This document shows positions 32,501 through 64,000 of a stretch of DNA of 64,000 bases, piece by piece. Both the position numbers and the translations under genes were made by a program. How positions within the stretch are numbered: the first letter of the stretch is position 1; each line of letters begins with the position of its first letter. Below the pieces are notes generated by a model that worked only from the letters and a program-made list of their open reading frames with translations, did not search any database and was not told where the DNA came from. The stretch is taken from NCBI GenBank assembly GCA_002709835.1, contig PAQX01000019.1:46197-110196 (forward strand). The letters are read 5' to 3'. This stretch comes from Deltaproteobacteria bacterium. GTDB lineage: Bacteria; Myxococcota_A; UBA9160; UBA4427.

Positions 32501-34158
32501 GGCAACGGAGGCGCGGAGAGGGTCGCGATCGCGTCCTCGCGTGACTTCACCACGCAGATTCGGCGCTCGCCGAGGGCGCGTCGCCCCTGCTGGAGTGTGC
32601 GCGCGACCGAATCGAGTTCGGCCTCGGGGTGCGCCGTCAGATGCCGGGCGAGGCGCTCGGCTACCTGGTCGAGGGCCGAGGGCGTGTGCGCGGAGAGCGG
32701 GAGGATCTCCCACGCGTCGGTGGCGGCGCGACGGGAAACGGGCGTGGCCGGCGCTTCTTCGAGCACGACGTGGGCGTTCGTTCCGCCCATTCCGAACGAA
32801 CTGACCCCCGCGCGACGCGGATCGTCGCCGCGCTTCCAAGGCGTCTTTTCGCGGACGACATCGAAAGGACTCGTTTCCAGACCGAGCTGCGGATTCGGCT
32901 GCGCGAAGTGCAGGCTCGGCGGAAGCGCTTCGTGGTGGAGGGCCAGCACCGCCTTGATGAGACCCGCGACCCCCGCCGCGGCGTCGAGATGACCGACGTT
33001 CGTCTTGACCGATCCAAGGGCGCAGGTCCGACCCGCGTCGCGAAGCTTGGCGCCGAGCGCCCGCTCGAGGGCGGCGAACTCGATGGGATCTCCCAGCTCC
33101 GTCGCGGTCCCGTGGGCTTCGACATACCCGACCGTGGAAGCGTCGAGGCCTGCACTCTCCCACGCCTTCTCGATCACTTCCGCCTGTCCGGTAACGCTCG
33201 GCGCGAGCAGGCCGACCTTTCCGGAGCCGTCGTTGTTGACCGCCGATCCCGCGACCACGGCCAGGATCCGGTCGCCGTCTCGCTCGGCCGCGGCGAGGGG
33301 CTTCAAGACGACGAGGCCGACGCCGTTTCCAAAGAGCGTCCCGCGTCCTTTCGCATCGAAGGCCCGACACATCCCGTCCGGCGATGCGATCCCGCCGGCT
33401 TCGAACACGTAGCCTTCCGGGTCGACGCGACCGATCGTGACGCCGCCGGCGAGCGCGATCTCGCAATCGCCCCGCATCAGCGCATGGCAGGCATCGTGGA
33501 CGGCGACCAGCGATGTCGAACAACCGGTCTGCACACCGCACGCCGGGCCTTTGAGATCGAGATGATAGGCAACCCGCGTCGGCATCAGGCCCATGACGTT
33601 GCCGACGACCGCTTGAACGGGATTCGACGGGTCTCGAAAGGCGGGGTCCGCATTCAGGGCGAGCAGGTAGCTGTTGAGCGCGGCTCCTCCGTACACGCCG
33701 ATCCGAGCACCCGAACGTGTCGAGTCGATCCCCGCATCTTCGAGTGCAACCCAGGCACACTCGAGAAAGACACGGTGCTGGGGATCGAGGATCGTCGCCT
33801 CGCGTGGCGCATACCCGAAGAGTCCCGCGTCGAAGGAGGCCGGATCCTCAAAGCTCGCATAAGCCCGGACATAGTCCGCGCTTGCCGCGACCTGCGGATC
33901 GACGCCCGCGGCTTCGAGCTCAGCGTCGTCGACATCGCGCACGCCGGAGCGGCCTGCGGCGAGCATCTCCCAGAACGCCTCGACGGACTCCGCCCCCGGC
34001 AACCGGGTCGCCATCCCGATCACCGCGACCCGGCGATCGCCGCCCTTCTTGAGCGTCTCGATCTGCAGGCGCGCCTCACGAAGCGCTTCCAGCATCCTCT
34101 GCTGCGAAGCGCGCGGCGGCGTCTGTTCTTCGGAATCACTCATCGGGTCGGGGTCCAT
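29536..34158 (-). CDS. type I PKS module: KS-AT-KR(like)-carrier protein (1540 aa)
   Basis: KS: TGCSTSLVAVH, EAHGTATELGD, NVGHLD. AT: GHSLGEY and HAFHS (malonyl-type). KR-like region: SKVDG, SSLSS, YAAAN, but a degenerate glycine-rich motif (VGDPTGGLA). C-terminal carrier: FFELGGNSLLAIQ. An alternative start at the second Met (MSDSEEQ) is possible. Confidence 0.95.
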   Translation of the reverse strand: MDPDPMSDSEEQTPPRASQQRMLEALREARLQIETLKKGGDRRVAVIGMATRLPGAESVEAFWEMLAAGRSGVRDVDDAELEAAGVDPQVAASADYVRAYASFEDPASFDAGLFGYAPREATILDPQHRVFLECAWVALEDAGIDSTRSGARIGVYGGAALNSYLLALNADPAFRDPSNPVQAVVGNVMGLMPTRVAYHLDLKGPACGVQTGCSTSLVAVHDACHALMRGDCEIALAGGVTIGRVDPEGYVFEAGGIASPDGMCRAFDAKGRGTLFGNGVGLVVLKPLAAAERDGDRILAVVAGSAVNNDGSGKVGLLAPSVTGQAEVIEKAWESAGLDASTVGYVEAHGTATELGDPIEFAALERALGAKLRDAGRTCALGSVKTNVGHLDAAAGVAGLIKAVLALHHEALPPSLHFAQPNPQLGLETSPFDVVREKTPWKRGDDPRRAGVSSFGMGGTNAHVVLEEAPATPVSRRAATDAWEILPLSAHTPSALDQVAERLARHLTAHPEAELDSVARTLQQGRRALGERRICVVKSREDAIATLSAPPLPGQRGQASGASRPIVFVFSGQGTQYPGMARRLYVSEPVFREALDACAAHLAPKLDLLRLVDAQTDPEELARTDHTQPVLFAFEYALAQLWQSRGVEPDALIGHSLGEYVAAAIAGVFTLEAALEAVAERGRAMQACPVGSMLAVAADGDDLEALLAATPGLELAAINAPQATTVAGPEDAISQAEAWLRERELPMKRLAVSHAFHSASMADAAETLAAHLRGASLAPPTIPIISNVTGAWLTDEEATNPDYWARHLRQPVRFADGVAQVGELDAPLFLEIGPGDALTRSVVACVGNSNVAIPSLPGVQQARHAERYFAQAFGRLWMMGADVDWSVLRAEGASPPPPVSLPTYPFERKRYYPDLSGTSRTPSVDPNRKATDPSDWFYAPRWERSALRFEGGESRAHGSDPERHDTIAVVFGSRPLGDLVESGSAGSIVRVERGASFVAQSDLDFRLDPRIESDWTLLLESLAGREAARILWVQAPDEHGAHDLDVLVALGRALLTTGLEVEFNLVTRDAFEVVGLEAAVAHRGQAIGLMQVVAQEVPGLALRTIDLSGDVVAEAFTRTIEAAPEALVPVVALRGAYRWMRRQRRLPLAEGDPGLRRDASYAIVGDPTGGLALFYARFLRQELNARVVFLASQDFPEPHAWDAVLADPDASPAHVATIEQIRSLGEEGKAWALSSLDLTDAGAIGAAIRAAGSASGSLAAVFTSDLMGDDSACALPDLDPSERRRIMRSKVDGTRALAAALEGIDLDFVLLQSSLSSVVGGVGFSAYAAANSHLDGVAQLHRGPVRWLSLGWDAVREEEEGPTRMTSLLATALSPDDVWAATCRALAEPGLTYAAVSARDLDARMELAFGRAGDAVGRMGGNHARPELSTTYAEPRTPVETAVATAVAELLGLERVGVDDDFFELGGNSLLAIQAVTRLRKEFGVELSMRSLLYGTPTVAGIAAAIERGDFGLSEEEVDTLEDLLGEIEAMPVEDAAGHD

Positions 34159-49160: not shown

Positions 49161-51368
49161 TCACGACCTCCTGCGTCGCGCCCGGTCGAGTTCCGCCGCA
49201 AGCAGATCGGCCGCATCGCCCCCGGCGTCGGCGTCTGCGTTCGCGCCCCCCGGTTCCTCGCTGGAGACCATCGCTTCCTCGATCGCGCCTTCGCCCGTCA
49301 GGAAGCGAGCCACGTCTGCCGCCGTCGGGTGTTCCCAGGCGAGCGTCTCCGAGACTTCGTCCTCACGTTCGAGCCAGGAACCGAGCGCCGTCGCCAACTC
49401 GATCGCGCCCACGGAATCGAGCCCCAGCTCGCTCATTGGCCGGTCCGGATCGAGTTCAGATGGCGCGAGCCCCAATCTGCGCCCGACCCAATCGAGCATG
49501 AAGCGCTCGATCTCCTGCACATTGGCATCCGGCCGCGAATCGAGTCCCCGATCTTCGGCACTGCTTGGCGTCTCCGCTTCTGTCGGTCGCGACCACCGCG
49601 CAACTTCGCTGAGCGCGCCTGCTTGGAAGAGATCGCGGCATGCGACCCGCTGAACCTTACCGCTCGGGGTCATCGGCAGACTGCCCGGCTCAAGGAGCAC
49701 GATCGTATGGGGCGAGACCTCGAACGCTTCAACGACGGCGCGACGGATCGATCCGAAGACCGAATCGGTCGAGTCGAGATCGAAACGCCGCGACACCTCG
49801 TGCACGATCACGAGCATGTCACCAAACTCCGATTCGACCGCGAACGCGGCGGTGACGTTAGTGGCCGCGACCTCGCTCGCTTCCTCAATCGCGCGCTCGA
49901 GATCGCTCGGAAAGAGGTTTCGACCTCGCAAGACGATCAGATCCTTGAGGCGCCCGCTGACGTAGAGCCGACCTTCCCGAAGAAAACCGAGATCGCCTGT
50001 TCGCACGAAGGGGCCGTCCCCCTCAGCCGTTCGGGCCCCGAAGGTCTCTTCGGTCGCCTTTTCGTTCTGCCAGTAGCCGCGCGCCACGCTCGGTCCTTGA
50101 ATCCAGATTTCTCCGGTTTGACCTTCACCCTGCGTCTGCTTGGTCTCCGGATCGACGCAGCGAACATCGTGACCGGCCACGGCGCTCCCGCTCGAGACCC
50201 GCGCCAGTGAGCCCGACCCGTTCGTCTCGGAGGCCTCGGCCCGTCCGGCCTCAAGGGCTTCCCGGTCGACACGCAGATGCGTCGCCCCATCACCGGCGAA
50301 GCCGCCCGTCGCCATCAACGTCGCCTCCGCGAGGCCATAACAAGGCAACCAGGCTTCCCGACGGAACCCGGCCGGCGCAAAAGTCTCGGCAAAGCGTTCG
50401 AGTGTGAGGGACGAAACGGCCTCTGCACCGTTGAAGGCGACCTTCCAGGACGAAAGGTCGAGCTGGGCACGCTCCTCTTCCGAGATCCGCATGAGGCAGT
50501 GTTCGTAGGCGAAATTCGGACCGCCGCTCGTGGTCGCACGGAACGCGCTGATCGCCTTGAGCCAGCGCACGGGGCTCCGGATGAACGCGCCCGGCGCCAT
50601 CAGGGTGACTGGGAAGCCGACGTAGAGCGGTTGCAACAGGCCACCGATCAGGCCCATGTCGTGATAGGGCGGGAGCCAGATCACACCGCGCGAATCTTCG
50701 TCGTGGCCAAAGCGTTCGCAAATGTGAGCCAGATTGTCCCCGAGGTTCGCGCAGCTGACCTGCACACCACGGGGGATGCCGGTCGAACCCGACGTGTACT
50801 GGAGGAAAGCCAGTCGGTCCGGATCGAAGGGACTCGCAGGCGGCGGCGCCCCCCCTTCCAGCGGCGCATCACTGACGACCGTCGCAGGCGCCTTGCCATT
50901 CGAGGCCCGTTCGTCCTCGAGCAGGTCGCCCAGATGACGGGTGACGCTCTCGGGCGCGAGCAGCGCGACTGCGTCGGAGTCGCGAATGACCCAACGGAGG
51001 CGCTCTTGCCTACGACGCCCGGGAGGCGGCAGAGGCACTGCGGTCACCCCCAGATGCAGGCACGCGAAGAACGCGGCTACGAACTCCAGCCCCGGGGGGA
51101 AAACGAGGATGACCCGGTGAGGCGCTTGCCTATCCGTTCGTTCGGGAAGGATCGGCGCAAGGCGCGTCGCGATCTCAGAGACCCAGCGTTCCAGTTCCGC
51201 GTAGGTCAGCGTGTCCTGACGGGCGGATTCGACCGGCTCGCCGTCATCCGCCAGGAATCGATAGGCAAGCTGATTCTGCTGATGAGTCGCACGATGTGAA
51301 AGGACATCGACGAGATTGCTAGAGAGAGACGGGCCCGATCGAACCGGCTCAGCTTCGGAGGGACACAA
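49161..51368 (-). CDS. fatty acyl-AMP ligase (FAAL) fused to an ACP, loading module (735 aa)
   Basis: A TTG start at 51368 has AAGGAG 8 nt upstream, and there is no in-frame ATG/GTG before the conserved N-terminus. Motifs FLQYTSGSTGIPRGV, PPYHDMGLIGG, TGDLGF and GRLKDLIVLRGRN are FadD32/FAAL-like. C-terminal ACP: LGLDSVGAIEL. The stop lies 3 nt before the next start. Confidence 0.9.
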   Translation of the reverse strand: MCPSEAEPVRSGPSLSSNLVDVLSHRATHQQNQLAYRFLADDGEPVESARQDTLTYAELERWVSEIATRLAPILPERTDRQAPHRVILVFPPGLEFVAAFFACLHLGVTAVPLPPPGRRRQERLRWVIRDSDAVALLAPESVTRHLGDLLEDERASNGKAPATVVSDAPLEGGAPPPASPFDPDRLAFLQYTSGSTGIPRGVQVSCANLGDNLAHICERFGHDEDSRGVIWLPPYHDMGLIGGLLQPLYVGFPVTLMAPGAFIRSPVRWLKAISAFRATTSGGPNFAYEHCLMRISEEERAQLDLSSWKVAFNGAEAVSSLTLERFAETFAPAGFRREAWLPCYGLAEATLMATGGFAGDGATHLRVDREALEAGRAEASETNGSGSLARVSSGSAVAGHDVRCVDPETKQTQGEGQTGEIWIQGPSVARGYWQNEKATEETFGARTAEGDGPFVRTGDLGFLREGRLYVSGRLKDLIVLRGRNLFPSDLERAIEEASEVAATNVTAAFAVESEFGDMLVIVHEVSRRFDLDSTDSVFGSIRRAVVEAFEVSPHTIVLLEPGSLPMTPSGKVQRVACRDLFQAGALSEVARWSRPTEAETPSSAEDRGLDSRPDANVQEIERFMLDWVGRRLGLAPSELDPDRPMSELGLDSVGAIELATALGSWLEREDEVSETLAWEHPTAADVARFLTGEGAIEEAMVSSEEPGGANADADAGGDAADLLAAELDRARRRRS

Positions 51369-51873: not shown

Positions 51874-54800
51874 ATGAGCCAATCCGAAGACATCGACCGC
51901 CTGCTCGCTCAACTCTTCCGTCTCGGCGTCCGCCTCGAGGCCAAGGGCGACAGCCTGAGGGCTTTTGGGCCCAAAAGTGCGCTGGACGGAAAACTCCGCC
52001 AGGAGATCCAGGATCGGAAGGCCGAGATCCTCGCGACCCTGGCCGCGCGAAAGCATAGTGCGGGTTCGGCCGCGTCGGCTTCGATCGGCACCAGTGACCG
52101 ACCGACTAACCCTCCTCTCTCCTTCGCCCAGCAACGACTCTGGTTTCTCGAGCAGCTCCAACCCGGGACTTCGGCGTACAACCTTCCCCTTGGTTTCACG
52201 ATCCAGGGCCAGCTCGAGCCGAAAGCCCTGATCGCCACGCTCGACGAACTCATCGCTCGCCACGAGATCCTGCGGACTCGCTACGTCCTCGACGAGGGCG
52301 AAGCCATTCAAGTCATCGATGAGGAAGTCCAACTCACCGTCCCCGTCCTCGATCTCCGGGACCAGGTCGACCGCGAACGCGCCGTCATCGCTGAGATCCG
52401 CTCCGCCGCGGCGCGCCCCTTCGATCTCGCGGCCGAACATCCGGTACGCGCCGCGATCCACCGAGTCGGCGACGCCCATTGGGTTGTGCTCTTCACCCTC
52501 CATCACATAGCCGCCGACGGCTGGTCCCTTGAGATCCTGCTGCGAGAGATCTCGACGATCTATCCTGCGAAACTCCTCGGGACGGAAGCCTCGCTGCCTG
52601 ATCTACCTGTCCAATACGCGGACTTCGCGGTTTGGCAGCGATCCGACGCGCACGCGCAGACACTCGACCAACAGCTCCGCTACTGGCGCAAACAGCTCGA
52701 CGGTCACATCCCCCGACTCCAACTTCCGACCGACCACACGCGTCCGCGCAGCCAGAACTTCAACGGGGACTTCGTAGAGTTCGAGATCGACCGCCACGTA
52801 GCCGACCGACTCCGGCAGATTGGAAAGACGCGCGGCGCAACGCTGTACATGACGTTGCTCGCCGCACTGAACGTCCAACTCCTCCGGTATACCGGCCAGC
52901 GCGACATCCTGGTCGGGTCTCCGATCGCGAATCGCCAACATGCCGAGGTCGAATCCCTCGTCGGGCTCTTCGTGAATACGCTGGTCATCCGTTCGCGCCT
53001 CGACCCCAAGGATCGTTTCGAAACCCTGGTCGACCAGGTCCGGGAGACGACCCTCGCGGCCTACGACCACCAGGACCTTCCTTTCGAGCTGCTCGTCGAG
53101 GCCCTCGCGCCCGATCGCGACCCTGGCATACACCCACTCTTCCAGGTGAAGTTCCGCCTTGAGAACGCGCCTGCCCAACGCCTCGAGATGCCAGGCCTGA
53201 CCCTCGAGCGCCTTCGCCAGGAAACCGTGTCCGCCAAGCTCGACCTGAGCGTCGACGTCTATGAGACGGATGGAGGCCTGGCCGGCGCCTTCGAATACGA
53301 TCGCGACCTCTTCGATCGCACAACGATCGAACGTATGAGCGCACAGTATGCAGCGCTCCTCGAAGTCATCGCGAGCCAACCAACAGCGGCGATCGGCTCG
53401 CTGTCCGCGCTGACCGAAGCAGAGATCACCCGACAGCAGCGCGAGTGGAACGACTCAACGAAGTCCTATCGCGACGACGCCTGCTACCACCACCTCTTCG
53501 AAGACCAGGCCGCCGCCCATCCCGACACGCTCGCGGTCCGATTCGACGACGGCTGCACGCATACGGATCTCACCTACGACGCGTTGAACGCACGCGCGAA
53601 TCGGCTCGCGCGCCGATTGATCGACGAAGGCGTCGGCCCCGAGTGCGTGGTCGCGATCTGCCTGGACCGATCGCCGGAGATGGTCGTCGCCATGCTGGGC
53701 GTCCTGAAGGCCGGAGGCGCCTACCTTCCCCTCGATGCGGAGTACCCCGCCGAGCGGCTCGAGTACATGATCGAGGACGCCGCCGTCCAGCTACTGGTCG
53801 GCGGCGGTCAAGCGCCAAAACTCTCAGGCGCGAAGATGATCGACCTCGATCGTTTCGACTGGAGCGGCGATGACCCGGGCAATCCGGATGTCGCGTTGTC
53901 CCCCGACAATCTGGCCTACCTGATTTACACGTCGGGTTCGACCGGACGACCGAAGGGGGTCACGATCGCCCACCGTGGCCTCGTGAACCTGACCGAAGAC
54001 AAGATCAGGAAGTGCGACGTCCGCCACGGCGACTGCGTTCTCCAGTTCTTCTCGTTCAGCTTCGACGGGTCCGTCCCGGAGTTCGTGATGACCCTCGCGA
54101 CCGGCGCGCACTTACTGATGGCGCCGGCGGAAACGATGCTGCCCGGGCCGGAACTCGCGGACCTCCTCCGACGCAATGACGTCACGCACATCACGCTCAC
54201 CCCGTCGGCACTCACCGCGCTCCCGTCTGGGGACTACCCCGCGCTCCGGATGGCACTCGTCGGCGGCGAAGCACCTTCTCCCGAGCTGATCCGGGAGTGG
54301 AGTCAGGGTCGGAACTTCATCAACGCCTATGGGCCGACCGAGACCACGGTCAACGCGAGCATGGTCTATTGCGGGAACGAGCACCCCGTCGAACCGACAA
54401 TCCTGCCTAGCGCGAACAAGCAGCTTTACGTCCTCGACCCCGATCTCCAGATCACACCGGTCGGCGTCGTCGGCGAGCTGCACATCGGCGGGGTCGGTCT
54501 CGCGCGCGGCTACCACAACCAACCTGCGCTGACCGCAGAACGCTTCATCCCGAACCCATTCGCGACCGGCGAGACGGGCGAGCATGGCATCGGCGCACCG
54601 CCGCTCCTGTACAAGAGCGGCGACCTCGCCGCCTATCTCCATGACGGTCGGATCAAGATCCTGGGACGCGTCGACCACCAGACCAAGCTGCGCGGCTTTC
54701 GGATCGAACTCGGCGAGATCGAGCGCAATCTCGAGGCCCATCCGGCCGTCCGCGCCGGCGTCGTGGCGATCCGGGAGTTCGGCGACGATCGGCGTTTGGT

Positions 54801-55284
54801 CGCCTATGCCGTACCAAAGGACGCCCCGGTCGACCCGGCCGAAATCCGACAGTTCCTCGCATCGAAGCTGCCCCACTTCATGCTCCCGACGACGTGCGTA
54901 TGGATCCCGGAGCTGCCGCGAACGAGCAATGACAAGCTCGACAGCGACGCGCTCCCCATGCCGAACTTCACGAAGGCCGAGCGCCGAGAGCCGCGGACGG
55001 AGACCGAGGCTCTCCTCGTCGAGACTTTCGCATCCGTCCTCGCGCTCGATCGTGTCGGAATCGACGACGATTTCTTCGACCTCGGCGGGCACTCGCTCCT
55101 CGTCACCCGGCTCGTAGCGCTCCTCAAGAATCGATTCGACGTCGAGGTCACGGTCATGGATCTCTTCGACGCGCCGAGCGCCTCGTCCCTTGCGCAGCGG
55201 ATCGAACAAAAGCAGGTGATCGGTCGGCTCGTCGAATCCGACGTCGAAGGCGCAGACGACGACCGAGAGGAGATGGCGCTGTGA
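51874..55284 (+). CDS. NRPS, one module with an N-terminal docking domain: DD-C(LCL)-A-T (1136 aa)
   Basis: Residues 4-58 form a TubC_N-type docking domain (DIDRLLAQLFRLGVRLEAKGDSLRAFGPKSALDGKLRQEIQDRKAEILATL). C domain: LSFAQQRLWFLEQL, HHIAADGWS. A domain: LAYLIYTSGSTGRPKGV, YKSGDL, hand-read code DGPTLGAVNK. T domain: FFDLGGHSLLVTRL. No E/TE. Acidic C-terminal tail ...VESDVEGADDDREEMAL. Confidence 0.95.
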   Translation: MSQSEDIDRLLAQLFRLGVRLEAKGDSLRAFGPKSALDGKLRQEIQDRKAEILATLAARKHSAGSAASASIGTSDRPTNPPLSFAQQRLWFLEQLQPGTSAYNLPLGFTIQGQLEPKALIATLDELIARHEILRTRYVLDEGEAIQVIDEEVQLTVPVLDLRDQVDRERAVIAEIRSAAARPFDLAAEHPVRAAIHRVGDAHWVVLFTLHHIAADGWSLEILLREISTIYPAKLLGTEASLPDLPVQYADFAVWQRSDAHAQTLDQQLRYWRKQLDGHIPRLQLPTDHTRPRSQNFNGDFVEFEIDRHVADRLRQIGKTRGATLYMTLLAALNVQLLRYTGQRDILVGSPIANRQHAEVESLVGLFVNTLVIRSRLDPKDRFETLVDQVRETTLAAYDHQDLPFELLVEALAPDRDPGIHPLFQVKFRLENAPAQRLEMPGLTLERLRQETVSAKLDLSVDVYETDGGLAGAFEYDRDLFDRTTIERMSAQYAALLEVIASQPTAAIGSLSALTEAEITRQQREWNDSTKSYRDDACYHHLFEDQAAAHPDTLAVRFDDGCTHTDLTYDALNARANRLARRLIDEGVGPECVVAICLDRSPEMVVAMLGVLKAGGAYLPLDAEYPAERLEYMIEDAAVQLLVGGGQAPKLSGAKMIDLDRFDWSGDDPGNPDVALSPDNLAYLIYTSGSTGRPKGVTIAHRGLVNLTEDKIRKCDVRHGDCVLQFFSFSFDGSVPEFVMTLATGAHLLMAPAETMLPGPELADLLRRNDVTHITLTPSALTALPSGDYPALRMALVGGEAPSPELIREWSQGRNFINAYGPTETTVNASMVYCGNEHPVEPTILPSANKQLYVLDPDLQITPVGVVGELHIGGVGLARGYHNQPALTAERFIPNPFATGETGEHGIGAPPLLYKSGDLAAYLHDGRIKILGRVDHQTKLRGFRIELGEIERNLEAHPAVRAGVVAIREFGDDRRLVAYAVPKDAPVDPAEIRQFLASKLPHFMLPTTCVWIPELPRTSNDKLDSDALPMPNFTKAERREPRTETEALLVETFASVLALDRVGIDDDFFDLGGHSLLVTRLVALLKNRFDVEVTVMDLFDAPSASSLAQRIEQKQVIGRLVESDVEGADDDREEMAL
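51883..52047 (+). other. TubC_N-type (beta-hairpin) docking domain, copy 1 (N-terminus of the NRPS)
   Basis: Pattern L..L...GV.L...G..L....PK.AL...L...L...KAEIL..L, as in the N-terminal docking domains of myxobacterial-type NRPS subunits. Assigned from memory of the family consensus. Confidence 0.7.
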
Positions 55285-58200
55285 ATGTGCGCTCCTCCGG
55301 ACGTTTGAACCCGACGACGACCTTCGAGCCGCTGTGGAATCAGTGGTACGCGTGGAGCTATCTGATCCCGCCCGCCTCCGCGTCGCGGTATCTGACCGAA
55401 TCCCATCTCGCGACGCTGCAGTCCTTCGCGGATGCGCCCGAAATACACGTCGAGGCGCTCCGCGATCCGGCGATGCGCGGCGGTCCCTTCATCGAATACG
55501 GCGTCGATCGCGCGGACGAGATCCGGGCGTTGTTCACCCGCACGACCGCGAAAACCACAGCCTTGGCGAACCTGAGTCTCGCAATCCGTAATCTCGAGGC
55601 GAAGCTGTCGGCCTATCCGCGCGGCATGTCCCTCGAACCGCTCTACGACGAGATCCCCGAACCCCTTCGCGGCTTCGTCGAACTCGTCTATGACGCCCGG
55701 GACAGCGCTGCCATCCGCTTCATCGAGCCGATGCTCTACCGGAGCGAGTTCTACGACCCCTCGCTCCAGACGATCGCGCTGCAGCGAATGGACGATCCCG
55801 ACACCCGCGGCTTCGTGCTGAGCACGCCGCGCCTCGAGGCCGACCTCGACTGCCATCTGCCGATCCCCTTCGACGACGCGCGCATCGATGCCCTCGCGCG
55901 TACCCGTCGCGAAGCGCGGGTGATCGGCGAACTCGCCGAAGAACTCGGGATCGGCGCCGCTGAACTTGATCGTTTCGCAGCACTCTTCACCGAGACGAAG
56001 GCGCCCGAAGCCGGCGTCCGTGCCGAAGGCGTCCGCGTCCGATACCTGGGTCATGCTTGCGTTCTCCTCGAGACCCGAGACGTCACGATCCTCGTCGACC
56101 CGCTGATTCCCTACGCAAGCGCAACCGGAATCGATCGAATCTCGTACGACGATCTGCCGGAGCGGCTAGATTACGTTCTGATCACTCACAACCATCAGGA
56201 CCACGTGATGCTGGAGACCCTTCTCCAGCTGCGCCACCGGATCGGCACGGTCGTCGTCCCGCGTTCCCAGAAGGGCTCGATCCTCGACCCGTCGATGCGT
56301 CTATGCCTGAAGCGGATCGGCTTCCGGAGCGTTCGGGAGATAGACGAGCTGGACGCAATCGACCTCCCCGATGGTGAGATCGTTTCGCTTCCCGTACTCG
56401 GGGAACACGGAGACCTGAACATCGGGGCGAAGAGCGCCTACTGGATCCGCGTCCTAGGACGATCGATCGTGTGCGCCGCCGACTCGAACAGCATCGACGA
56501 CCGACTCTACGCCCACTTCCGCCAGCTACTCGGCCGACCGGATCTCCTCTTCATCGGCATGGAGTGCGACGGCGCCCCCTTTACCTGGTCCTATGGGCCG
56601 ATCCTGCCCACGCCGGTGCCCCAGCGGATCGCGAAGTCCCGCCGCCTCGACGGCTCGGACGCCGAGCGCGCTCTGCGGATCGTCGACGCGCTCGATCCGA
56701 GCGCCGTCTACGTTTACGCGATGGGCGGCGAACCGTGGCTGACCTTCATCACATCGATCGCTTATACCGAAACGTCGCGCCCGATCGTCGCGTCGAACCG
56801 ATTCGTCGAAGCCTGCCACGAGCGCGGCCTCGACAGCGCGCGCCTCCTCGGGCGACGGGACTTCCACTTGACGCCCGGCAACGGGACCACCGCCCCCTCC
56901 GCGGCCCCGCTCCCGGCTCGGCTCGACCCGAACCTCGAGGCGTCGCCGCAGCCGGTCGCCGCGTCTAAGCGCCCCTCGGAAACCGCCAGTGCAGTCTCGG
57001 CCCGTCGCGATGGCAAAGGTCAGAAGCTAACGGCGCTCCTCGCGGAGCTCGAGTCTCTGGACGTCCGCTTACACGTCGACGGCGAGCAGCTGAAGGTGAA
57101 CTCGCCGAAGGGCGCGCTGACCGACACGCTCAAAGCCGCGCTGAAGGAGCACAAGGCGGCGATCGTGGCGCTCATCTCGGGCGGCCGCGATAGCGAGGCG
57201 AAGGCCGGACCGGAAGATGAGCGCCCCGCGCACGAGGGTGCCGAAGACGTTCGTCTTGCCGCGGACCTCGTCGTCGCGAGTTCGCGCACCCCGCGCCACG
57301 ACACCACGCCGAGCGAGATCCTCCTGACGGGCGCCACGGGTTTCCTCGGCGCCTATCTCATGGACGCGCTGCTCGAACGGACCGACGCCCGCATCACCTG
57401 CCTCGTCCGATCGGACTCCACCGAAGCCGGACTCGAGCGGATCGCGGAGGCCTTCTCGCTCTACGCCCTGGACTCCGGGCGCCTTGAAGCGCGGATCGAC
57501 GTGCTCCCGAGCGACCTCACGAAGCCCCGCCTTGGGCTCGACGAAGCGACCTTCGATCGACTCGCGTGCGAAATCGACGTGATCCATCACGCCGGCGCCA
57601 TGGTGCACCACGCTTCACCCTACTCGCAGCTCCGCGACGCGAACGTCGACGGCACCCGTCGGATCCTCGAACTCGCGGCGGCGGGCGGCGGCCTCCCGGT
57701 CCACTACGTCTCGACCCTGAGCGTCCTCCCGCCCCGTCCATTCCCCGGGAAGACCCGCTTCCACGAGCACGATCCGATCGACGCGTTTCCGGTACCGGCC
57801 GGCGGCTACAACCTGAGCAAGTGGGTCGCGGAGCATCTCGTCGTCGACGCCCGCCGCGCAGGGATTCCGGTCTCGGTCTACCGGCCCGGTCCGGTTTCCG
57901 GCGACCAGCGCACGGGCGCCTTCAATCGCGACGACTTCCTCTACCGCTTGATGTCGGGATACCTGCAGTCGGGCCTCGCGCCGGACGGCGAGACCTCCCT
58001 CGACATGCTGCCTGTCGACTTCGTTGCCGAGACGATCGTCGCGCTGGCGGACGATCCGGATTCCCTTGGACAGACCTTCCACCTTCTCCACCCGAATCCC
58101 GCCTCCTCGGAGATCCTCTTCGAGGTCTGCCGTGAAGCGGGTCATCCGATCAAACGCGTGCCCTATCAGCGCTGGTTCGAACACCTGACCGAAATCGCGA

Positions 58201-58451
58201 AGCACGACGAGAACCATCCGCTCTATCCGCTCGTAGGGCTCTTCTCGTCGCGCTCCGGACGAAGCGATTCGGCCCCAGCGCCGGAAGGGCCGCCTGAGCT
58301 GCCATTCGAGACGGCGAACCTGCACGCGGGCCTTCTCCGCGTCGGTCTCGAGATCCCGCCCCTCGATCACGCGCTCTTCCATACCTACGTGGGCGCGATG
58401 CTCCCCGCCGAGGGCGAAGACGTGCGGCGCGCGATCGGAGGCGAGCGATGA
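55281..58451 (+). CDS. three-part fusion: CmlA-type non-heme diiron beta-hydroxylase (MBL fold), internal docking domain, thioester reductase (R) domain (1056 aa)
   Basis: One uninterrupted ORF. The GTG start overlaps the upstream stop (GTGA). The MBL core has THNHQDH (nt 56184-56204; H303, H305, D307, H308), LGEHGD (E375) and CAADSN (D401). Then a Pro/Ala/Ser linker and a docking domain at aa 581-634. The R domain runs from aa 680: LLTGATGFLGAYL, RITCLVR, HHAGAMV, YNLSK. No T, C or A domain. Confidence 0.85.
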   Translation: MNVRSSGRLNPTTTFEPLWNQWYAWSYLIPPASASRYLTESHLATLQSFADAPEIHVEALRDPAMRGGPFIEYGVDRADEIRALFTRTTAKTTALANLSLAIRNLEAKLSAYPRGMSLEPLYDEIPEPLRGFVELVYDARDSAAIRFIEPMLYRSEFYDPSLQTIALQRMDDPDTRGFVLSTPRLEADLDCHLPIPFDDARIDALARTRREARVIGELAEELGIGAAELDRFAALFTETKAPEAGVRAEGVRVRYLGHACVLLETRDVTILVDPLIPYASATGIDRISYDDLPERLDYVLITHNHQDHVMLETLLQLRHRIGTVVVPRSQKGSILDPSMRLCLKRIGFRSVREIDELDAIDLPDGEIVSLPVLGEHGDLNIGAKSAYWIRVLGRSIVCAADSNSIDDRLYAHFRQLLGRPDLLFIGMECDGAPFTWSYGPILPTPVPQRIAKSRRLDGSDAERALRIVDALDPSAVYVYAMGGEPWLTFITSIAYTETSRPIVASNRFVEACHERGLDSARLLGRRDFHLTPGNGTTAPSAAPLPARLDPNLEASPQPVAASKRPSETASAVSARRDGKGQKLTALLAELESLDVRLHVDGEQLKVNSPKGALTDTLKAALKEHKAAIVALISGGRDSEAKAGPEDERPAHEGAEDVRLAADLVVASSRTPRHDTTPSEILLTGATGFLGAYLMDALLERTDARITCLVRSDSTEAGLERIAEAFSLYALDSGRLEARIDVLPSDLTKPRLGLDEATFDRLACEIDVIHHAGAMVHHASPYSQLRDANVDGTRRILELAAAGGGLPVHYVSTLSVLPPRPFPGKTRFHEHDPIDAFPVPAGGYNLSKWVAEHLVVDARRAGIPVSVYRPGPVSGDQRTGAFNRDDFLYRLMSGYLQSGLAPDGETSLDMLPVDFVAETIVALADDPDSLGQTFHLLHPNPASSEILFEVCREAGHPIKRVPYQRWFEHLTEIAKHDENHPLYPLVGLFSSRSGRSDSAPAPEGPPELPFETANLHAGLLRVGLEIPPLDHALFHTYVGAMLPAEGEDVRRAIGGER
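57021..57183 (+). other. TubC_N-type docking domain, copy 2 (internal to the fusion protein)
   Basis: QKLTALLAELESLDVRLHVDGEQLKVNSPKGALTDTLKAALKEHKAAIVALISG. Hand alignment with copy 1 gives 19 identical positions over 51 ungapped residues, including VRL, PK.AL and KA.I. Confidence 0.7.
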
Positions 58452-59302
58452 GCGCGCGCTATGACCGATACGACGGTTGGGCCTCGCTCTACAACGCCAC
58501 GATGGGGCCCGAGTACGGGCACGCGCAGTTCGAGATCGTCGAGAGACTGATCCTTCCGTCGATTCCCGCGCGCGCGACGATCCTCGACCTCTGCTGTGGG
58601 ACCGGCCAGCTTCTTACCCCACTCGCGGAAGCAGGCTACGCGGTCACCGGTCTCGACGGCTCGACCGAGATGCTCCGCTTCGCCGCGGAGAACGCCCCCG
58701 ACGCGAAGCTCGTCGCGGAAGACGCTCGGGAGTTCCGTAATCCCGAAGCGTTCGACGCAGTGGTGTCGACGAGCGCCTCGCTCAATCACGTGGGCTCTCT
58801 CGATGATCTCCAGTGCGTGTTCGGAAACGTCTTCGCCTCCCTCCGTCCGGGCGGCGGCTTCCTCTTCGACCTGAATCACCCCGCCCAGCTCGAACGCTGG
58901 TGGAACGGTCGCCCCACCGAAGGCGAGATCGACCGACACCTGGCCTGGATGATCACCCCCGAGTACGACGCCGCCCGGAGTGAGGGCCGCTTCACGGTCA
59001 CCGTCTACAGCGCACCCGAAGCCTCAATCCGCCCCTGGAAGACCCCGCTCTACCGACTCCTATCGCTTCCACGCTTCATCGGGCTCCGCCTGTGCGCAAT
59101 CGGCCGCTTCGATCGACTCGAACCTGAATGGGCGCGAGATTCCATGGCTTTCCCCGTTTTCGGCCACTCCATCGACGGCGTCCGCGAACGACTGGAGCGT
59201 GTCGGGTTCGATGATATTTGCGTCGAGACCGCCGACGGCATGCCTCTCGACGAAAACCACTCCGCGCATTTCGTCTGTCGGAAGCCTTCGGAGGACGCGT
59301 AG
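58448..59302 (+). CDS. class I SAM-dependent methyltransferase (284 aa)
   Basis: Motif I ILDLCCGTGQL, post-I VTGLDGS, motif II FDAVVS, and LRPGGGFLF. Joined to the upstream gene by an ATGA overlap. Confidence 0.85.
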   Translation: MSARYDRYDGWASLYNATMGPEYGHAQFEIVERLILPSIPARATILDLCCGTGQLLTPLAEAGYAVTGLDGSTEMLRFAAENAPDAKLVAEDAREFRNPEAFDAVVSTSASLNHVGSLDDLQCVFGNVFASLRPGGGFLFDLNHPAQLERWWNGRPTEGEIDRHLAWMITPEYDAARSEGRFTVTVYSAPEASIRPWKTPLYRLLSLPRFIGLRLCAIGRFDRLEPEWARDSMAFPVFGHSIDGVRERLERVGFDDICVETADGMPLDENHSAHFVCRKPSEDA

Positions 59303-60774
59303 TGAGCAAGGCGACGAAGCAGAACCGCGAACCGGGCGCGGCACAGCTCCGCGCGCAGCTGATCTCCGAGCTCGGCGCGCGCACGAGCAAGTCGAAGGCC
59401 TACGCCGAAGAGCACCGACTGCACCACGCGGACAAGAGCTCGATCGGCGCGGACTTCGACCCGCGCCTCAAGGAGATCTTCTACCCGATTGTGACGACAC
59501 GGGCCGAGGGTGCCCACTTGTGGGACCTCGATGGCAATCGCTACGTCGACATACTCCAGGGGCTCGGGGCAAACCTCTTCGGACACAACCCTGACTTCGT
59601 CCGCGAGGCGATCGCCAGCCAGCTCGAGGACGGTTTCCCAGTGGGACCCCAGACACCGCTCGCCGGCGAAGTCGCCCGCCAGGCGGCTCGCCTAACCGGA
59701 GCCGATCGCGTCTGCTTCAGCGTGACCGGGACAGAAGCCGTGATGACAGCGATCCGTCTCGCGCGAACCTCGACCGGCCGCAACAAGATCGTAGTGTTCA
59801 CCGACTCCTATCATGGCCATTCCGACGCCGTGCTTAATCGAGCTTCGATCGTCGAGTACGCACGCCGCAAGGTTCAGGGTGCTCTCGCCAGCCGCGGGGC
59901 GCCCGGAGCGATCGTCGAAGCGCTTCGCCGCCCCCTGCGGACCCGCGGCGTCCCCGCGGTGCCGGGCATCCCCGGTTCCGTCGCTCGTGACGCCCTCGTA
60001 CTCGAATACGACAACCCGCGTTCCCTCGACGTGATTCGACGCAACCGGAAAAAAATCGCGGCGGTGATAGTCGAACCCGTTCAGAGCCGCTGCCCCGAAC
60101 GCCAGCCCGTCGAGTTCCTCAGGGATCTGCGAGCGGTCACCCGAGAACACGACATCGCCCTCGTCTTCGACGAAATGGTGACCGGATTTCGAACCCACCC
60201 CGCCGGTGCACACGGCCTCTTCGAGATCGAGCCCGATATCGCAACCTACAGCAAGGTCGCGGGAGGAGGGCTTCCGCTTTCCCTGATCGCGGGTTCCGCG
60301 CGCTACCTCGACGCCATCGACGGCGGCGCCTGGCGCTTCGGCGACGAGTCTGCGCCGGAGGTCCAAACCACCTTCTTCGCCGGCACCTTCGCGAAGCATC
60401 CACTCTCCCTGCGCGCCGCTCACGCGGTTTTCTCGCGCTTGCTCGATGAAGGACCGGCCTTCCAGGCAGGTCTGACCGAAAAGACGGCGGCACTGGTAGA
60501 GCGGATCAACCACACGACCAAGGCTGAGGGTCTGCCGGTCCGGTTCACGCACTTCGGATCCTTCTTCGCGATCGCGCTGAGCGAAAGCCGCATGGATCCG
60601 CACGCCGTGGTGCTTCTCTCTTATTGGCTTCTTCGCGAGGGAATCTTCCTTCGCCCCGGAGACAAAGGCGGCTTTCTGACCACTGCACATGACGAGCAGG
60701 ACACCCACGCGATCGCGACGGCCTTCGAAGGTGGGATTCGAGCCTTGCGAGACGCACACGTATTGCCGGCTTGA
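59302..60774 (+). CDS. class-III PLP-dependent aminotransferase (glutamate-1-semialdehyde aminomutase-like)
   Basis: A GTG start at 59302 (TAGTG junction with the methyltransferase stop) gives 490 aa. Motifs: HLWDLDGNRYVD, GFPVGPQTPLAGEVA, SVTGTEAVMTAIRLAR, VIVEPVQ, LVFDEMVTGFR, and the PLP lysine in ATYSKVAGGGLP. The upstream part of the listed 518-aa ORF overlaps the methyltransferase. Confidence 0.9.
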   Translation: MSKATKQNREPGAAQLRAQLISELGARTSKSKAYAEEHRLHHADKSSIGADFDPRLKEIFYPIVTTRAEGAHLWDLDGNRYVDILQGLGANLFGHNPDFVREAIASQLEDGFPVGPQTPLAGEVARQAARLTGADRVCFSVTGTEAVMTAIRLARTSTGRNKIVVFTDSYHGHSDAVLNRASIVEYARRKVQGALASRGAPGAIVEALRRPLRTRGVPAVPGIPGSVARDALVLEYDNPRSLDVIRRNRKKIAAVIVEPVQSRCPERQPVEFLRDLRAVTREHDIALVFDEMVTGFRTHPAGAHGLFEIEPDIATYSKVAGGGLPLSLIAGSARYLDAIDGGAWRFGDESAPEVQTTFFAGTFAKHPLSLRAAHAVFSRLLDEGPAFQAGLTEKTAALVERINHTTKAEGLPVRFTHFGSFFAIALSESRMDPHAVVLLSYWLLREGIFLRPGDKGGFLTTAHDEQDTHAIATAFEGGIRALRDAHVLPA

Positions 60775-60831: not shown

Positions 60832-61056
60832 ATGAGTGAAACGAATACGACGGACAGCGCGATCTTTTCGGTCGTCGTCAGCGAAGAAGGTCGTTACTCC
60901 ATCTGGCCAGAATACAAGGAGATCCCCTGGGGTTGGCGGGCAGATGGCAAGCGCGGATCGAAGGCTGAATGCCTCGACTACATCGAAACCGTGTGGACGG
61001 ATATGCGCCCCTTGAGCCTTCGCCGTGCGATGGACAAAGACACCTCGAGCAACTAG
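60832..61056 (+). CDS. MbtH-like protein (74 aa)
   Basis: Signature [13 protein letters not shown] ... [14 protein letters not shown] (three conserved Trp and the PxGW motif). Confidence 0.9.
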
Positions 61057-61077: not shown

Positions 61078-61563
61078 ATGGAACCCATGCCCGAAGAGCG
61101 CGATAAGACGACCGAGGAACCGCAGGTTCTCGATCTAGTCGCACCGTGGAATCTTCCGCTCGCGCTCGACCTCGGCGATCGTGAGCGCGAGACGATCGCG
61201 GCTACGCTCACGGAGCTCAACGCGGAGCTCGCGTCCGAGCAGCCTCGCTCGCAAGCCCTCGAGAAGCTGATCGAGCGCTTCCCAACGCCAACTGTCCAGA
61301 GGCACTCGATCACGGACACCAAGTCGAACCTCACGTCCGAAGACGTCGAGTCGTACGACCGCTACTTCGAGGTTCGGCACGTCGATACAGAATCGCCCGC
61401 GCGCTCGATCGTGCGCAGTCTGCTCATGACCTGCCATTCTTTCCTTTCACTGCGTGAGACCGGCTTCTCGTTCGATTCCGAACAAGTCGCCCTGCAGACG
61501 ACGGGTTTCCGCGAGCATGCGCGTCTGATCGCGCGGATCTGCGGAATCGCACTGGAGCGCTGA
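61078..61563 (+). CDS. hypothetical protein (161 aa), acidic N-terminal half
   Basis: The ORF has ordinary composition and sits in operon context. Its stop overlaps the next start (TGATG). No family recognised. Confidence 0.5.
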   Translation: MEPMPEERDKTTEEPQVLDLVAPWNLPLALDLGDRERETIAATLTELNAELASEQPRSQALEKLIERFPTPTVQRHSITDTKSNLTSEDVESYDRYFEVRHVDTESPARSIVRSLLMTCHSFLSLRETGFSFDSEQVALQTTGFREHARLIARICGIALER

Positions 61564-62192
61564 TGTCGACTTTCGCTCCGAACATGTCGACACCGTCGGC
61601 AATTGAGCTCTGGAAGCGTTTCCACTGGGCGTTCTTCGTGAACACCCAGGGGCTCCTCATGGCGCTCTCTCGATTCGAGCGTTTCGTGGAAACGGAAGAC
61701 TTCGAGGGTGCTCGGCGAGAGATGGCCGCTGCCGCGACGCTCATGCGGGCCTCGGGCGCGTCGATGCAGTTGGCAGGCAGCTTCACCCGGCAGGAATACA
61801 AGGACCAAGTCCGACCATCGATGATGCCCCCGGAGCTGGAGGTCGCGGGATTCAGCGGCCTCATGTCCTGGGATCACGCGAGCTTGATCGAACTCTGGCG
61901 ACGACTCAGCCCGATCTTCGCTTCGCTGCCTGACGTACTCAAGCACGAGTATGAGGACTTCGTAGCCGCCTACGGCACGCTTGCTGACTCGCATAGTGCA
62001 GTCTGCTCACGCTTCGTCGCGAAGGGCGAGGGCTCGATCCGCTACGAGGGCGATGAAGCCATCGAGTCCTTGTCCCGATTCCGCAAGGGACGGGAGGCGA
62101 TGATCGCTCCGCAGGGACGCGTGAGTGGCTGCCCCGCCCACGGCGCACCGGCGACGCACCGCGACGAAGCGGACGACGACATCGAGAGCTGA
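61563..62192 (+). CDS. hypothetical helical protein (209 aa), possible distant tryptophan-2,3-dioxygenase-superfamily (heme) fold
   Basis: Translationally coupled ORF. By-eye resemblance to TDO landmarks: ELWKRF (the ELW helix), YKDQVRP...AGFSGLMSWDHASLIE (compare F.xFR..L.P.SGFQS.QfR.lE), and SHSAVCSRFVAKGEGS (compare the proximal-His region H...V.R.iG.K.GTGGSS). The functional call has low confidence. Confidence 0.5.
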   Translation: MSTFAPNMSTPSAIELWKRFHWAFFVNTQGLLMALSRFERFVETEDFEGARREMAAAATLMRASGASMQLAGSFTRQEYKDQVRPSMMPPELEVAGFSGLMSWDHASLIELWRRLSPIFASLPDVLKHEYEDFVAAYGTLADSHSAVCSRFVAKGEGSIRYEGDEAIESLSRFRKGREAMIAPQGRVSGCPAHGAPATHRDEADDDIES

Positions 62193-62194: not shown

Positions 62195-64000
62195 ATGTCG
62201 CGCGAAGCCATCCCTCACGACCGTATCGAAGATGTCTATCCGCTGACCCCGACTCAGCAAGGCATGCTCTTCCACGACCTGATGCATCCGAACTCCGGTG
62301 TCTACGTCGTGCAGGTTTCATTCACGGTTTACGGCGCGATAAACGAAGCGGCCTTCGCCGAGACCTGGCGTGCGCTCCAGAAACGGCATCCCGTCCTCCG
62401 GACCGCCTTCGCGTGGGAAGGACTAGCCCGCCCGATGCAGGTCGTTGGACGCGAGGCGCCGGTCGGGATCACGGACGTCGATGCGCGAGGAACGAGCGAG
62501 CGCGAACGGAACTCGTTGCTCGAGGGCTGGCTGGCCGAGGACCTCTCGCAGGGCTTCGACCCGAGCCGCGCGCCGCTCATGCGCGTCGCACGGATCCGGT
62601 TGGACGAGAGAACGACCCGTATCGTCTGGACCTATCATCATCTCCTCCTCGACGGCTGGTCTCTTCCTCTCCTGCTCGGCGAGTGGATCGCCTGTTACCA
62701 GGCCGCGGCCCGAAACGAGTCACCGCCCCTGGGTGAAGCGCCGCGCTACCGGGAGTTCGTCGACTGGCTGGAGGCGCAGGACCAGGCGGCAAGCCGTGCC
62801 TACTGGACGGAAGCTCTCGAAGGTTGCACCCCTACCCACGTGAGCGGCGGCCATCGCGACCCGAAGGAGACGCGTCAGGCGCGAACGATCCGAACCCTCA
62901 AACCCGAGACGACCGCGCGGCTCCGGGCCTTTGCCCGAGCCGAACGCGTCACCCAGAGCACCGTCCTTCAGGCCGCCTACGGTCTCGTACTGGGACGCCA
63001 CTGCGAGCAGGACGACGTTCTATTCGGCCTCGCCCGATCGGGCCGTCCCCACGCCCTCGATCGGATCGACGAACGCATCGGTCTCTTCCTCAATCTGCTG
63101 CCGACACGAGTGGAACGGCACGAGGTGGCGACGATCGGGGACTGGCTGCGCGCGCTCCAGGCACGCTTCGTCGAGCAGCAACGCTTCGAATACTCCTCGC
63201 TCCGCGACGTCCACGTCGCGAGCGGGGTCGCGGCGGATCAGCAGCTCTTTTCGTCGATTCTCGTCTTCGAGAACTACCCGACCCTTGAGGGGGGAAGCGA
63301 GGATGTCCCGAGCGACGGCCTCAGGATCTGCGACGTCGACGTCCGCGAGCACACGAACTACCCGCTCAATCTCTACATCTCGGGCACCGACGCCCTTGAG
63401 CTTCGACTGCTCTATGGACTCGGCCACTTCACTTCCTCGGAAGCAGACCGCCTCGTCGGCCAGATCGCTTCGACGTTAGACGCGATCATCCAGGACGGCT
63501 CGCGCCAAGTCGGCTCGCTGACTGCCGCCTCCCTCGCGGAGATCCACGAGGCGCACGTCGCCCCAAACTCGACACGTAGGGACTCTCAGCCCGAGTCCGT
63601 TCTCGAGTCGTTTCGGAAGCAGGTCACCAGCGGGCCGACACATCCCGCGCTCGTCTGCGGGGATACGCGACTCGACTACACCACGCTCGCGCGAGAAGTA
63701 GCCGCTATCGCTGAACGCTTGCGCGCCACGGGGATCGGCGAAGGCCGCCTCGTCGGAATCTGTCTTCCGCGAACGGCCCGCCTCCCGATCGCTCTCCTCG
63801 CGGTACTTTCAACCGGCGCCGCTTACGTTCCGCTCGACCCGTCGTTCCCCGAACAGCGCCTGCGCCAGATCGTAGAAGACTCCGGGATCGCCTCGGTGCT
63901 CGTCGACGACGCAACTGAAGCGCTCGCACGATCTCTCGGCGCGGCGCCGGTCCGCGTGGACGCGGACAACGAAGCGCCCTGCTTCGAGCTCGGCGAGGCT
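62195..64000 (+). CDS. NRPS, partial: C(DCL-type)-A... (3' end lies outside the window)
   Basis: Not in the ORF track because it has no stop. Frame 2 is open from the ATG at 62195 to the window edge (602 codons, checked by hand at both ends). MSREAIPHDRIEDVYPLTPTQQGMLFH, YHHLLLDGWS, then the start of an A domain (LVCGDTRLDYTTLAREV...LLAVLSTGAAYVPLDPSFPEQRL). Confidence 0.9.
   Translation, partial: MSREAIPHDRIEDVYPLTPTQQGMLFHDLMHPNSGVYVVQVSFTVYGAINEAAFAETWRALQKRHPVLRTAFAWEGLARPMQVVGREAPVGITDVDARGTSERERNSLLEGWLAEDLSQGFDPSRAPLMRVARIRLDERTTRIVWTYHHLLLDGWSLPLLLGEWIACYQAAARNESPPLGEAPRYREFVDWLEAQDQAASRAYWTEALEGCTPTHVSGGHRDPKETRQARTIRTLKPETTARLRAFARAERVTQSTVLQAAYGLVLGRHCEQDDVLFGLARSGRPHALDRIDERIGLFLNLLPTRVERHEVATIGDWLRALQARFVEQQRFEYSSLRDVHVASGVAADQQLFSSILVFENYPTLEGGSEDVPSDGLRICDVDVREHTNYPLNLYISGTDALELRLLYGLGHFTSSEADRLVGQIASTLDAIIQDGSRQVGSLTAASLAEIHEAHVAPNSTRRDSQPESVLESFRKQVTSGPTHPALVCGDTRLDYTTLAREVAAIAERLRATGIGEGRLVGICLPRTARLPIALLAVLSTGAAYVPLDPSFPEQRLRQIVEDSGIASVLVDDATEALARSLGAAPVRVDADNEAPCFELGEA

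Follow-up and report, generated by a model that had tools for sequence, protein, structure and literature searches.

A probable Dmaq-type chelator cassette built around reductase, methyltransferase and aminotransferase genes in a marine bacterial lipopeptide cluster

Which end group is given to the peptide at a nonribosomal peptide synthetase (NRPS) locus where a thioester reductase (R) domain is followed directly by genes for a class I S-adenosylmethionine (SAM)-dependent methyltransferase (MT) and a class-III aminotransferase? This question is raised by a stretch of 64,000 nucleotides (the window; contig PAQX01000019.1, assembly GCA_002709835.1) from a marine metagenome organism whose closest metagenome-assembled genome (MAG) is labelled Myxococcota, and which is probably a marine myxobacterium. 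A preliminary description of the locus had proposed a release cassette leading to a cationic lipopeptide with a C-terminal amine, possibly N-methylated. Our analysis points to a different end group: the three genes are probably the core of a cassette for a Dmaq-type chelator, in a lipopeptide siderophore cluster of the fabrubactin/anachelin family. Dmaq (1,1-dimethyl-3-amino-tetrahydro-dihydroxyquinolinium) is the catechol-quinolinium chelator of both anachelin and fabrubactin (PMC12971057, PMC4247773).

Three open reading frames (ORFs) were called on the + strand, at 55281..58451 (1056 aa), 58448..59302 (284 aa) and 59302..60774 (490 aa). Inspection of the raw sequence confirmed both of the stop/start overlaps previously described, ATGA at 58448 and TAGTG at 59302: the ATG of the MT gene overlaps the TGA stop of the R protein (58448-58451), and the TAG stop of the MT gene and the GTG start of the aminotransferase have one G in common (GTAGTG, 59299-59304). 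The R, MT and aminotransferase genes are translationally coupled. The ORF call for the aminotransferase gave 59218 or 59302 as start and 60774 as end; the GTG at 59302 is backed by 490-aa homologues aligning over 100% of their length with 99% and 80% identity. The same order of the three genes was seen in four phyla, and this recurrence indicates that their adjacency is no accident.

The R domain (57318..58451) starts exactly where the preliminary description had placed it, since the match to the thioester reductase family TIGR01746 (aa 680-1038, 327 bits for a cutoff of 213) begins at position 57318. NAD_binding_4 covers aa 682-919, the motifs TGATGFLG, YVST, and YNLSK are all intact, and scores of 258 and 265 bits were obtained with the R region of MxcG and the R domain of MxaA in the Protein Data Bank (PDB), respectively. 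The view that this domain belongs to a carrier-bearing protein had to be abandoned. R has no carrier protein of its own and forms the C-terminal third of a fusion with a CmlA-type hydroxylase and a TubC-type docking domain. The hydroxylase half (55281..56960, + strand) appears to be a full-length member of the CmlA-type diiron β-hydroxylases, with a CmlA_N domain (246 bits) and a metallo-β-lactamase-fold diiron domain; its PDB matches include 8a90 (447 bits) and CmlA itself (4jo0, 398 bits, residues 13-528). The internal docking domain (57033..57173, aa 585-631, Pfam TubC_N 55.7 bits) lies between the hydroxylase and R and is similar in sequence to the N-terminal dock of the preceding NRPS. 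That protein (51874..55284, + strand) is the terminal module of the line, with a TubC-type dock and condensation (C), adenylation (A) and peptidyl carrier protein (PCP) domains (Pfam TubC_N, Condensation, AMP-binding, PP-binding). To judge from the domain content, R must work in trans on this C-A-PCP protein, whose PCP is its predicted substrate carrier. R is fused to the C-A-PCP module in Marinivivus and Agrobacterium, and the Marinivivus fusion identifies the module as the substrate of R.

The operon extends past the limits of 57318-60774 previously given for the cassette: position 60774 is followed by an MbtH gene, two small ORFs for a split SfmD-like heme peroxidase, and further NRPS and polyketide synthase (PKS) genes; the part within the window is on the + strand. 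The MbtH-like protein, an adenylation-domain helper (60832..61056, Pfam MbtH 70.6 bits), keeps its position in all related loci. The second small ORF (61563..62192, 209 aa) is FbnM-like and corresponds to the C-terminal half of SfmD, a heme-dependent tyrosine hydroxylase/peroxygenase that acts on 3-methyl-tyrosine: it aligns with residues 182-354 of PDB entry 6vdp (E value 7e-15) and keeps the equivalents of His274, His313, and Cys317 (motifs WDH and DSHSAVC). Like enzymes of the SfmD/LmbB2 type, it therefore retains both His ligands and the Cys; unlike them, the window enzyme would be split over two polypeptides, as are FbnL and FbnM. The first small ORF (61078..61563) is the presumed N-terminal partner, FbnL-like by its syntenic position in all related loci and by weak precomputed matches of its homologues to the Pfam family PF27188 (SfmD_perox). 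Searches of the PDB with the single sequence or an 8-sequence profile returned nothing significant for this ORF, with no detectable match to SfmD, and neither small ORF was recognised by a Pfam hmmscan, the scanned copy of which may lack PF27188. The window ORFs are 26% (FbnL-like) and 48% (FbnM-like) identical to their Agrobacterium counterparts.

The fabrubactin A/B cluster of A. fabrum C58 reportedly lies in the Atu3663-3691 region and is said to have been described by Vinnik et al. in 2021. FbnL and FbnM convert Tyr to L-DOPA, the start of Dmaq formation, and the two-protein pair serves as the antiSMASH marker for Dmaq (PMC12971057); by synteny with the Agrobacterium pair, the window appears to contain this marker. 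In the anachelin cluster, genes for a reductase, a methyltransferase, an aminotransferase, and a tyrosine hydroxylase (Red, MT, AmT, and TyrH) have been assigned to Dmaq production (Calteau et al., 2014; PMC4247773), and by this published assignment the window resembles anachelin in its gene set for a C-terminal Dmaq. It differs from anachelin in its start, which is predicted to be a fatty acid loaded by a fatty acyl-AMP ligase (FAAL) instead of salicylate.

The closest comparison was offered by the fabrubactin-type locus of Agrobacterium (our locus L092), in which dock-C-A-PCP-R, MT, aminotransferase, MbtH, a 172-aa ORF, SfmD_perox, PKS, and NRPS genes follow one another, with divergent genes for FAAL fused to an acyl carrier protein (ACP) and for a ketosynthase (KS)-acyltransferase (AT)-ketoreductase (KR)-ACP module. 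The architecture is alike on both strands. In the two loci, a module with R, MT, aminotransferase, MbtH, FbnL-like, and FbnM-like genes precedes a PKS and an NRPS with an oxidase-containing heterocycle module, FAAL-ACP and a KS-AT-KR-ACP module are encoded divergently, a luciferase-like monooxygenase (LLM) of the FbnE family is found, and the terminal A domains have near-identical codes, DGPTLGAVNK in the window and DAPTLGAVNK in the R-linked module of Agrobacterium, one position apart. Identities to the Agrobacterium locus were 55% for the terminal A domain, 45% for R, 42% for the MT, and 40% for the FAAL, which occupies the equivalent divergent position. The window aminotransferase shares 55% identity with AAK89725.1, an A. 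fabrum C58 protein encoded on a 2,075,653-bp replicon, annotated as a siderophore biosynthesis protein, and belonging to the same 90% cluster as the aminotransferase of the Agrobacterium locus. The window departs from fabrubactin in its R, which is separate from the module and joined to the CmlA-type hydroxylase through the internal dock, and in its two extra modules containing dehydratase (DH), C-methyltransferase (cMT), and enoylreductase (ER) domains (KS-AT-DH-cMT-ER-KR-ACP), from which a longer methyl-branched lipid is predicted. It also has an extra Gly module before the second PKS, and its NRPS modules are different ones: Asn-like with epimerization (E), Gly, and Val with E.

These comparisons suggest the following pathway. 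The split heme peroxidase (61078-62192) would hydroxylate L-tyrosine to L-DOPA, by homology to FbnL/FbnM. The last module (51874-55284), assisted by MbtH, would load DOPA onto the lipopeptide, as suggested by the A-domain code found throughout the family. The CmlA-dock-R fusion would dock on this module, and R would reduce the thioester with NAD(P)H to a peptidyl aldehyde; the hydroxylase half may β-hydroxylate the tethered residue. The aminotransferase would turn the aldehyde into a primary amine, to be dimethylated by the MT. Finally, oxidation of the catechol to the quinone, attack by the tertiary amine, and ring closure would generate the quaternary Dmaq, with the catechol as iron ligand. 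We infer the steps from reduction to ring closure on three grounds: which domains are present, how the genes are linked, and what structures the known family members have. The order of reductive release, transamination, and N-methylation put forward in the preliminary description is thus supported by the linkage of R and of MT to the aminotransferase (see below), by synteny with fabrubactin, and by the match to the genes assigned to Dmaq in anachelin. Its amine would be an intermediate and not a free end group: since the cassette continues with the FbnL/FbnM-like split heme peroxidase, the cyclised N,N-dimethyl Dmaq is the likely end product.

To survey the aminotransferase loci, the neighbourhoods of homologues at 57-80% identity were inspected (a Myxococcota MAG, two metagenome contigs, a Pseudomonadota MAG, a Burkholderiales MAG, Marinivivus, and Phormidesmis). 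Every one contained the same block of R, MT, aminotransferase, MbtH, a small ORF, and an SfmD_perox ORF, followed by NRPS or PKS genes; the block was also found in alphaproteobacteria, Burkholderiales, and many cyanobacteria. A scan in which each species was represented by one genome, with an alignment of aminotransferases as query, yielded 80 more loci, which were annotated by tblastn with the domains of the window before a tree was built. Stand-alone aminotransferases numbered 66. Sufficient upstream sequence was available for 62, and 55 of these directly followed an R domain, whatever the last amino acid of the peptide; an MT was encoded within 4 kb in 50 of the 66 loci. Many R-linked loci had no KS within 10 kb. 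The 22 aminotransferase (AMT) domains embedded in larger synthases, as in the mycosubtilin synthase subunit MycA (ORFs of 887-3227 aa), formed one separate clade, and none had R or MT nearby; 21 had a KS upstream, most often near -3.5 kb, and one showed the arrangement FAAL-KS-LLM-AMT. The remaining seven stand-alone homologues, without adjacent R, were L016, L017, L018, and L023, with at most an MT upstream, and three in a PKS-thioesterase (TE) context. L017, the only one inspected among the former four, is preceded by an unrelated gene. At the latter three, L059, L062, and L063 (two Nostoc MAGs and one Acetobacteraceae MAG), which lack R, MT and aminotransferase genes were observed after a KS-AT-KR-ACP-TE PKS, a TauD dioxygenase, and a cupin/JmjC gene; L062 additionally contains part of a second aminotransferase.

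Two groups of R-linked stand-alone aminotransferases can be told apart by the preceding module. At every locus with the peroxidase pair for which an upstream A domain was available, the code of the R-linked A domain was D[AG]PTLGAVNK or differed from it at one residue and, conversely, every locus with a D[AG]PTLGAVNK module had the FbnL/M-like pair. In a second clade, R and aminotransferase follow modules coded for Asp (DLTKIGHVGK), a His-like residue (DSASIAEVWK), Val, or Orn, peroxidase genes are lacking, and MT and MbtH genes are often present (cyanobacterial loci L032, L034-L038, L040-L054, L057, L061, L067, L071, L073, L080, L082, and L085). Since the linkage holds across so many terminal-residue codes, the R-aminotransferase pair, often with MT, behaves as a general C-terminal reductive-amination cassette, and the window appears to belong to the subfamily of this cassette tied to one particular aromatic residue. 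For many uncharacterised cyanobacterial peptides, the second clade predicts C-terminal diamines.

The second clade also bears on the possibility that the product keeps an uncyclised C-terminal amine, or an N-methyl or N,N-dimethyl diamine, while the peroxidase pair and the CmlA-type hydroxylase modify an aromatic residue independently. The existence of R-aminotransferase loci, with or without MT, after modules of four other specificities and without peroxidase makes uncyclised terminal amines the likely general outcome of the cassette, and the analysis revealed no catechol oxidase dedicated to closing the ring. In biomimetic synthesis, the ring reportedly closes readily once the catechol is oxidised. 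The route of closure after catechol oxidation is described in a review (PMC6562677). The strict association of the D[AG]PTLGAVNK module with the FbnL/M-like pair argues against independent action of the peroxidase, and both characterised family members contain the cyclised Dmaq (PMC12971057, PMC4247773). For the window, we consider an uncyclised end group unlikely.

The aminotransferase itself (59302..60774, + strand; Aminotran_3, 165 bits) is a stand-alone class-III enzyme predicted to aminate the released aldehyde. K318, in the motif YSKVAGGG, occupies the position expected for the lysine that binds pyridoxal phosphate and is invariant in a 14-sequence alignment. The best PDB match was the AMT domain of MycA (6kfm, 358 bits, E value 4e-106), the closest solved structure by sequence, whereas the best glutamate-semialdehyde aminomutase (GSAM) scored 184 bits. 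By analogy with MycA, the enzyme could aminate the ACP-bound β-keto group formed by the KS-AT-KR-ACP module at 29536-34158 or by its downstream counterpart, leading to a β-amino (possibly N-methylated) acid, with R releasing an aldehyde or alcohol. We favoured this role first, on the strength of the MycA match and of the KR domains of both PKS modules, which are divergent (71 and 35 bits) and have altered NADPH motifs. The LLM gene that follows the first of these modules resembles the pairing of oxygenase and AMT in some pathways to β-amino-α-hydroxy fatty acids.

Two results led us to drop β-keto amination, which the preliminary description had kept as its alternative. The first was the survey, in which all 22 embedded AMTs grouped in their own clade without R or MT nearby, whereas R preceded 55 of 62 stand-alone homologues, many of them without a KS within 10 kb. 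The phylogenetic comparison had been envisaged with both MxcL-like enzymes and PKS-embedded AMTs; the neighbour-joining, midpoint-rooted tree covers the latter and places the window enzyme in a separate clade, in support of an R-linked role. The second was the published grouping of MycA in one Aminotran_3 subfamily with the aldehyde-aminating enzymes MxcL and Zmn12 (Milano et al., PMC3870968), so that likeness to MycA does not discriminate between the two substrates. MycA AMT is embedded after KS-AT-ACP and acts on a β-ketoacyl-ACP, whereas the window enzyme is a 490-aa stand-alone protein of another clade; it is paired with R in the manner of MxcG and MxcL. As in myxochelin B synthesis by MxcG and MxcL, an NRPS R domain would release the aldehyde and a class-III aminotransferase would make the amine; in contrast to the pathway proposed here, the myxochelin system does without a methyltransferase, DOPA, or ring closure. 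In addition, FbnE, the flavin monooxygenase of the orthologous fabrubactin system, is the proposed maker of the two α-hydroxycarboxylates of this compound, and not of amines (PMC12971057). The two PKS modules with divergent KR and the LLM would be accounted for by FbnE chemistry instead of amination, and we now regard β-keto amination as very unlikely.

Could R instead carry out a four-electron reduction, as MxaA does, and release a C-terminal alcohol, the aminotransferase and MT serving precursor supply only? MxaA is the closest solved R domain, and the window R also matches the R region of MxcG. In the myxochelin system, the reductase yields an alcohol as well as products derived from the aldehyde. 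Against an alcohol stand the tight conservation of the R-aminotransferase adjacency across many terminal residues, the existence of a protein in which R and MT are fused, and the fact that no precursor of the fabrubactin/anachelin family is known to need an ω-transaminase. Taken together, these observations make an alcohol terminus very improbable.

The fusion protein (P0213, JGI metagenome, 1342 aa) combines CmlA_N, a metallo-β-lactamase fold, a TubC dock, R, and a methyltransferase in one polypeptide, indicating that R and MT are functionally tied. The MT of the window (58448..59302, + strand; Pfam Methyltransf_25/11/12) is a predicted amine N,N-dimethyltransferase. Its best matches, weak at 45-56 bits, are amine N-methyltransferases (a daptide MTase at 55 bits, DesVI, TylM1, CalS10, and CypM). 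The preliminary description had left open whether it methylates the new amine or the β-hydroxyl introduced by the hydroxylase. MT is also paired with the aminotransferase at loci devoid of both the CmlA hydroxylase and catechol-forming genes, and this linkage, together with the R-MT fusion, favours N-methylation; the β-hydroxyl is the less favoured of the two substrates.

Several observations weigh against the proposed Dmaq pathway. The roles of R, MT, and aminotransferase in Dmaq formation are themselves proposals, based on a bioinformatic assignment (Calteau et al., 2014), and the product of the window is predicted from its genes. MxaA, the closest solved R, reduces to the alcohol, so that capture of the aldehyde by the aminotransferase is assumed, and the best structural relative of the aminotransferase acts on β-ketoacyl-ACP. 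The similarity of the MT to N-methyltransferases is weak. The aminotransferase tree has no outgroup. Finally, the published structure of Dmaq lacks a hydroxyl where β-hydroxylation would leave one; this structure offers no place for the action of the CmlA-type hydroxylase, and the end group may differ in the window.

This last point leaves two options: the lineage of the window may either make a hydroxylated Dmaq variant or employ the oxygenase in another role. A CmlA-type hydroxylase fused to R was seen in none of the alphaproteobacterial clusters, the fabrubactin-type locus among them, whereas the CmlA-dock-R fusion occurs in the cyanobacterial relatives of the cassette. This architecture is common beyond the window, with 213 matches at E ≤ 1e-30; among the 120 matches listed, all were of fusion length, most were cyanobacterial (including Nostoc, Trichormus, and an Anabaena), and a few came from Burkholderiales and Pseudomonadales. 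To our knowledge, it is uncharacterised. The hydroxylase could act on PCP-bound DOPA, giving a 4-hydroxy-Dmaq variant, or it could provide the oxidation that drives ring closure. We tentatively suggest, as a possibility short of an expectation, that the oxygenase is a working part of chelator formation, in which case, under either role, the lipopeptide siderophore of this marine myxobacterium, with its methyl-branched lipid, would carry a chelating end group of a new type.

On the + strand, a further NRPS starts at 62195 and is cut by the end of the window (62195..64000); its translation contains C-A-PCP with a Gly code (DILQLGVIWK). A TARA Oceans scaffold with identical genes (L002; ERZ28653918 scaffold_3243) continues with C-A-PCP, a KS-AT-KR-ACP PKS with divergent KR, and an NRPS exceeding 2100 aa; in relatives, the last NRPS has an oxidase module of the thiazole/oxazole type. 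The - strand encodes the FbnG-like starter, a FAAL with ACP (49161..51368; Pfam AMP-binding, DIP2-like, PP-binding), divergent from the + strand operon; FbnG is a FAAL (PMC11837247). It also encodes the two KS-AT-DH-cMT-ER-KR-ACP modules, NRPS proteins of composition C-A-PCP-E and C-A-PCP-C-A-PCP-E, the KS-AT-KR-ACP PKS that had been the candidate source of the β-keto group (29536..34158, Pfam KR 71 bits), and, after it, the LLM, a flavin mononucleotide-dependent enzyme of the FbnE/Atu3671 family (28451..29524; TIGR04020 MupA/Atu3671 family, 492 bits). Other KR domains scored above 200 bits, versus 71 bits for the divergent KR of the window and 35 bits for that of the TARA scaffold (L002:3982-8520). 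In both divergent KRs, one residue is inserted and others are substituted in the glycine-rich NADPH loop, and the K, S, Y, and N residues are retained; the domain is probably adapted to FbnE-type monooxygenase chemistry and not simply decayed.

In the KRs of both fully reducing modules (41634-49157 and 34192-41637, - strand), His was observed near aa 2200 at the expected position of the catalytic Tyr (motifs GQTNHAAAN and GQAAHVAAN). These domains still have the NADPH motif and the Lys, Ser, and Asn residues, an unusual combination in modules with DH and ER.

Two genes that flank the cluster and adjoin NRPS genes encode a siderophore-interacting protein of the ferric-siderophore reductase type (13629..14507, + strand; Pfam SIP 116 bits, FAD_binding_9 87 bits) and a MatE-family efflux transporter (14544..15931, - strand; 131.6 bits), whose true start is in doubt, as its ORF call runs into the end of an NRPS gene. 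This reductase and this exporter provide independent support for the prediction that the cluster product is a siderophore. The G+C content is 0.59 at 12001-14000, just upstream of the reductase gene, and about 0.68 elsewhere in the window. Cyanochelins, lusichelins, fatuamide, and leptochelins were considered as products and rejected, as none has the cassette of the window; cyanochelin B synthesis involves a reductase and yields an ethanolamine product, with no aminotransferase or peroxidase described.

The cassette of the window thus appears to belong to a known chelator pathway, with an additional methyl-branched lipid, different peptide modules, and the CmlA-R fusion as predicted lineage-specific features. 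Myxococcota have been named an understudied phylum for metallophores in an eLife survey (PMC12971057), and our analysis would place the Dmaq-type pathway, so far found in Agrobacterium and other alphaproteobacteria and in cyanobacteria, in a marine organism whose closest MAG carries this label. The succession of R and a stand-alone class-III aminotransferase, often with MT, may be used in genome mining to predict terminal amines. The CmlA-dock-R fusion stands out as a subject for enzymology and may account for the completion or variation of the chelator.

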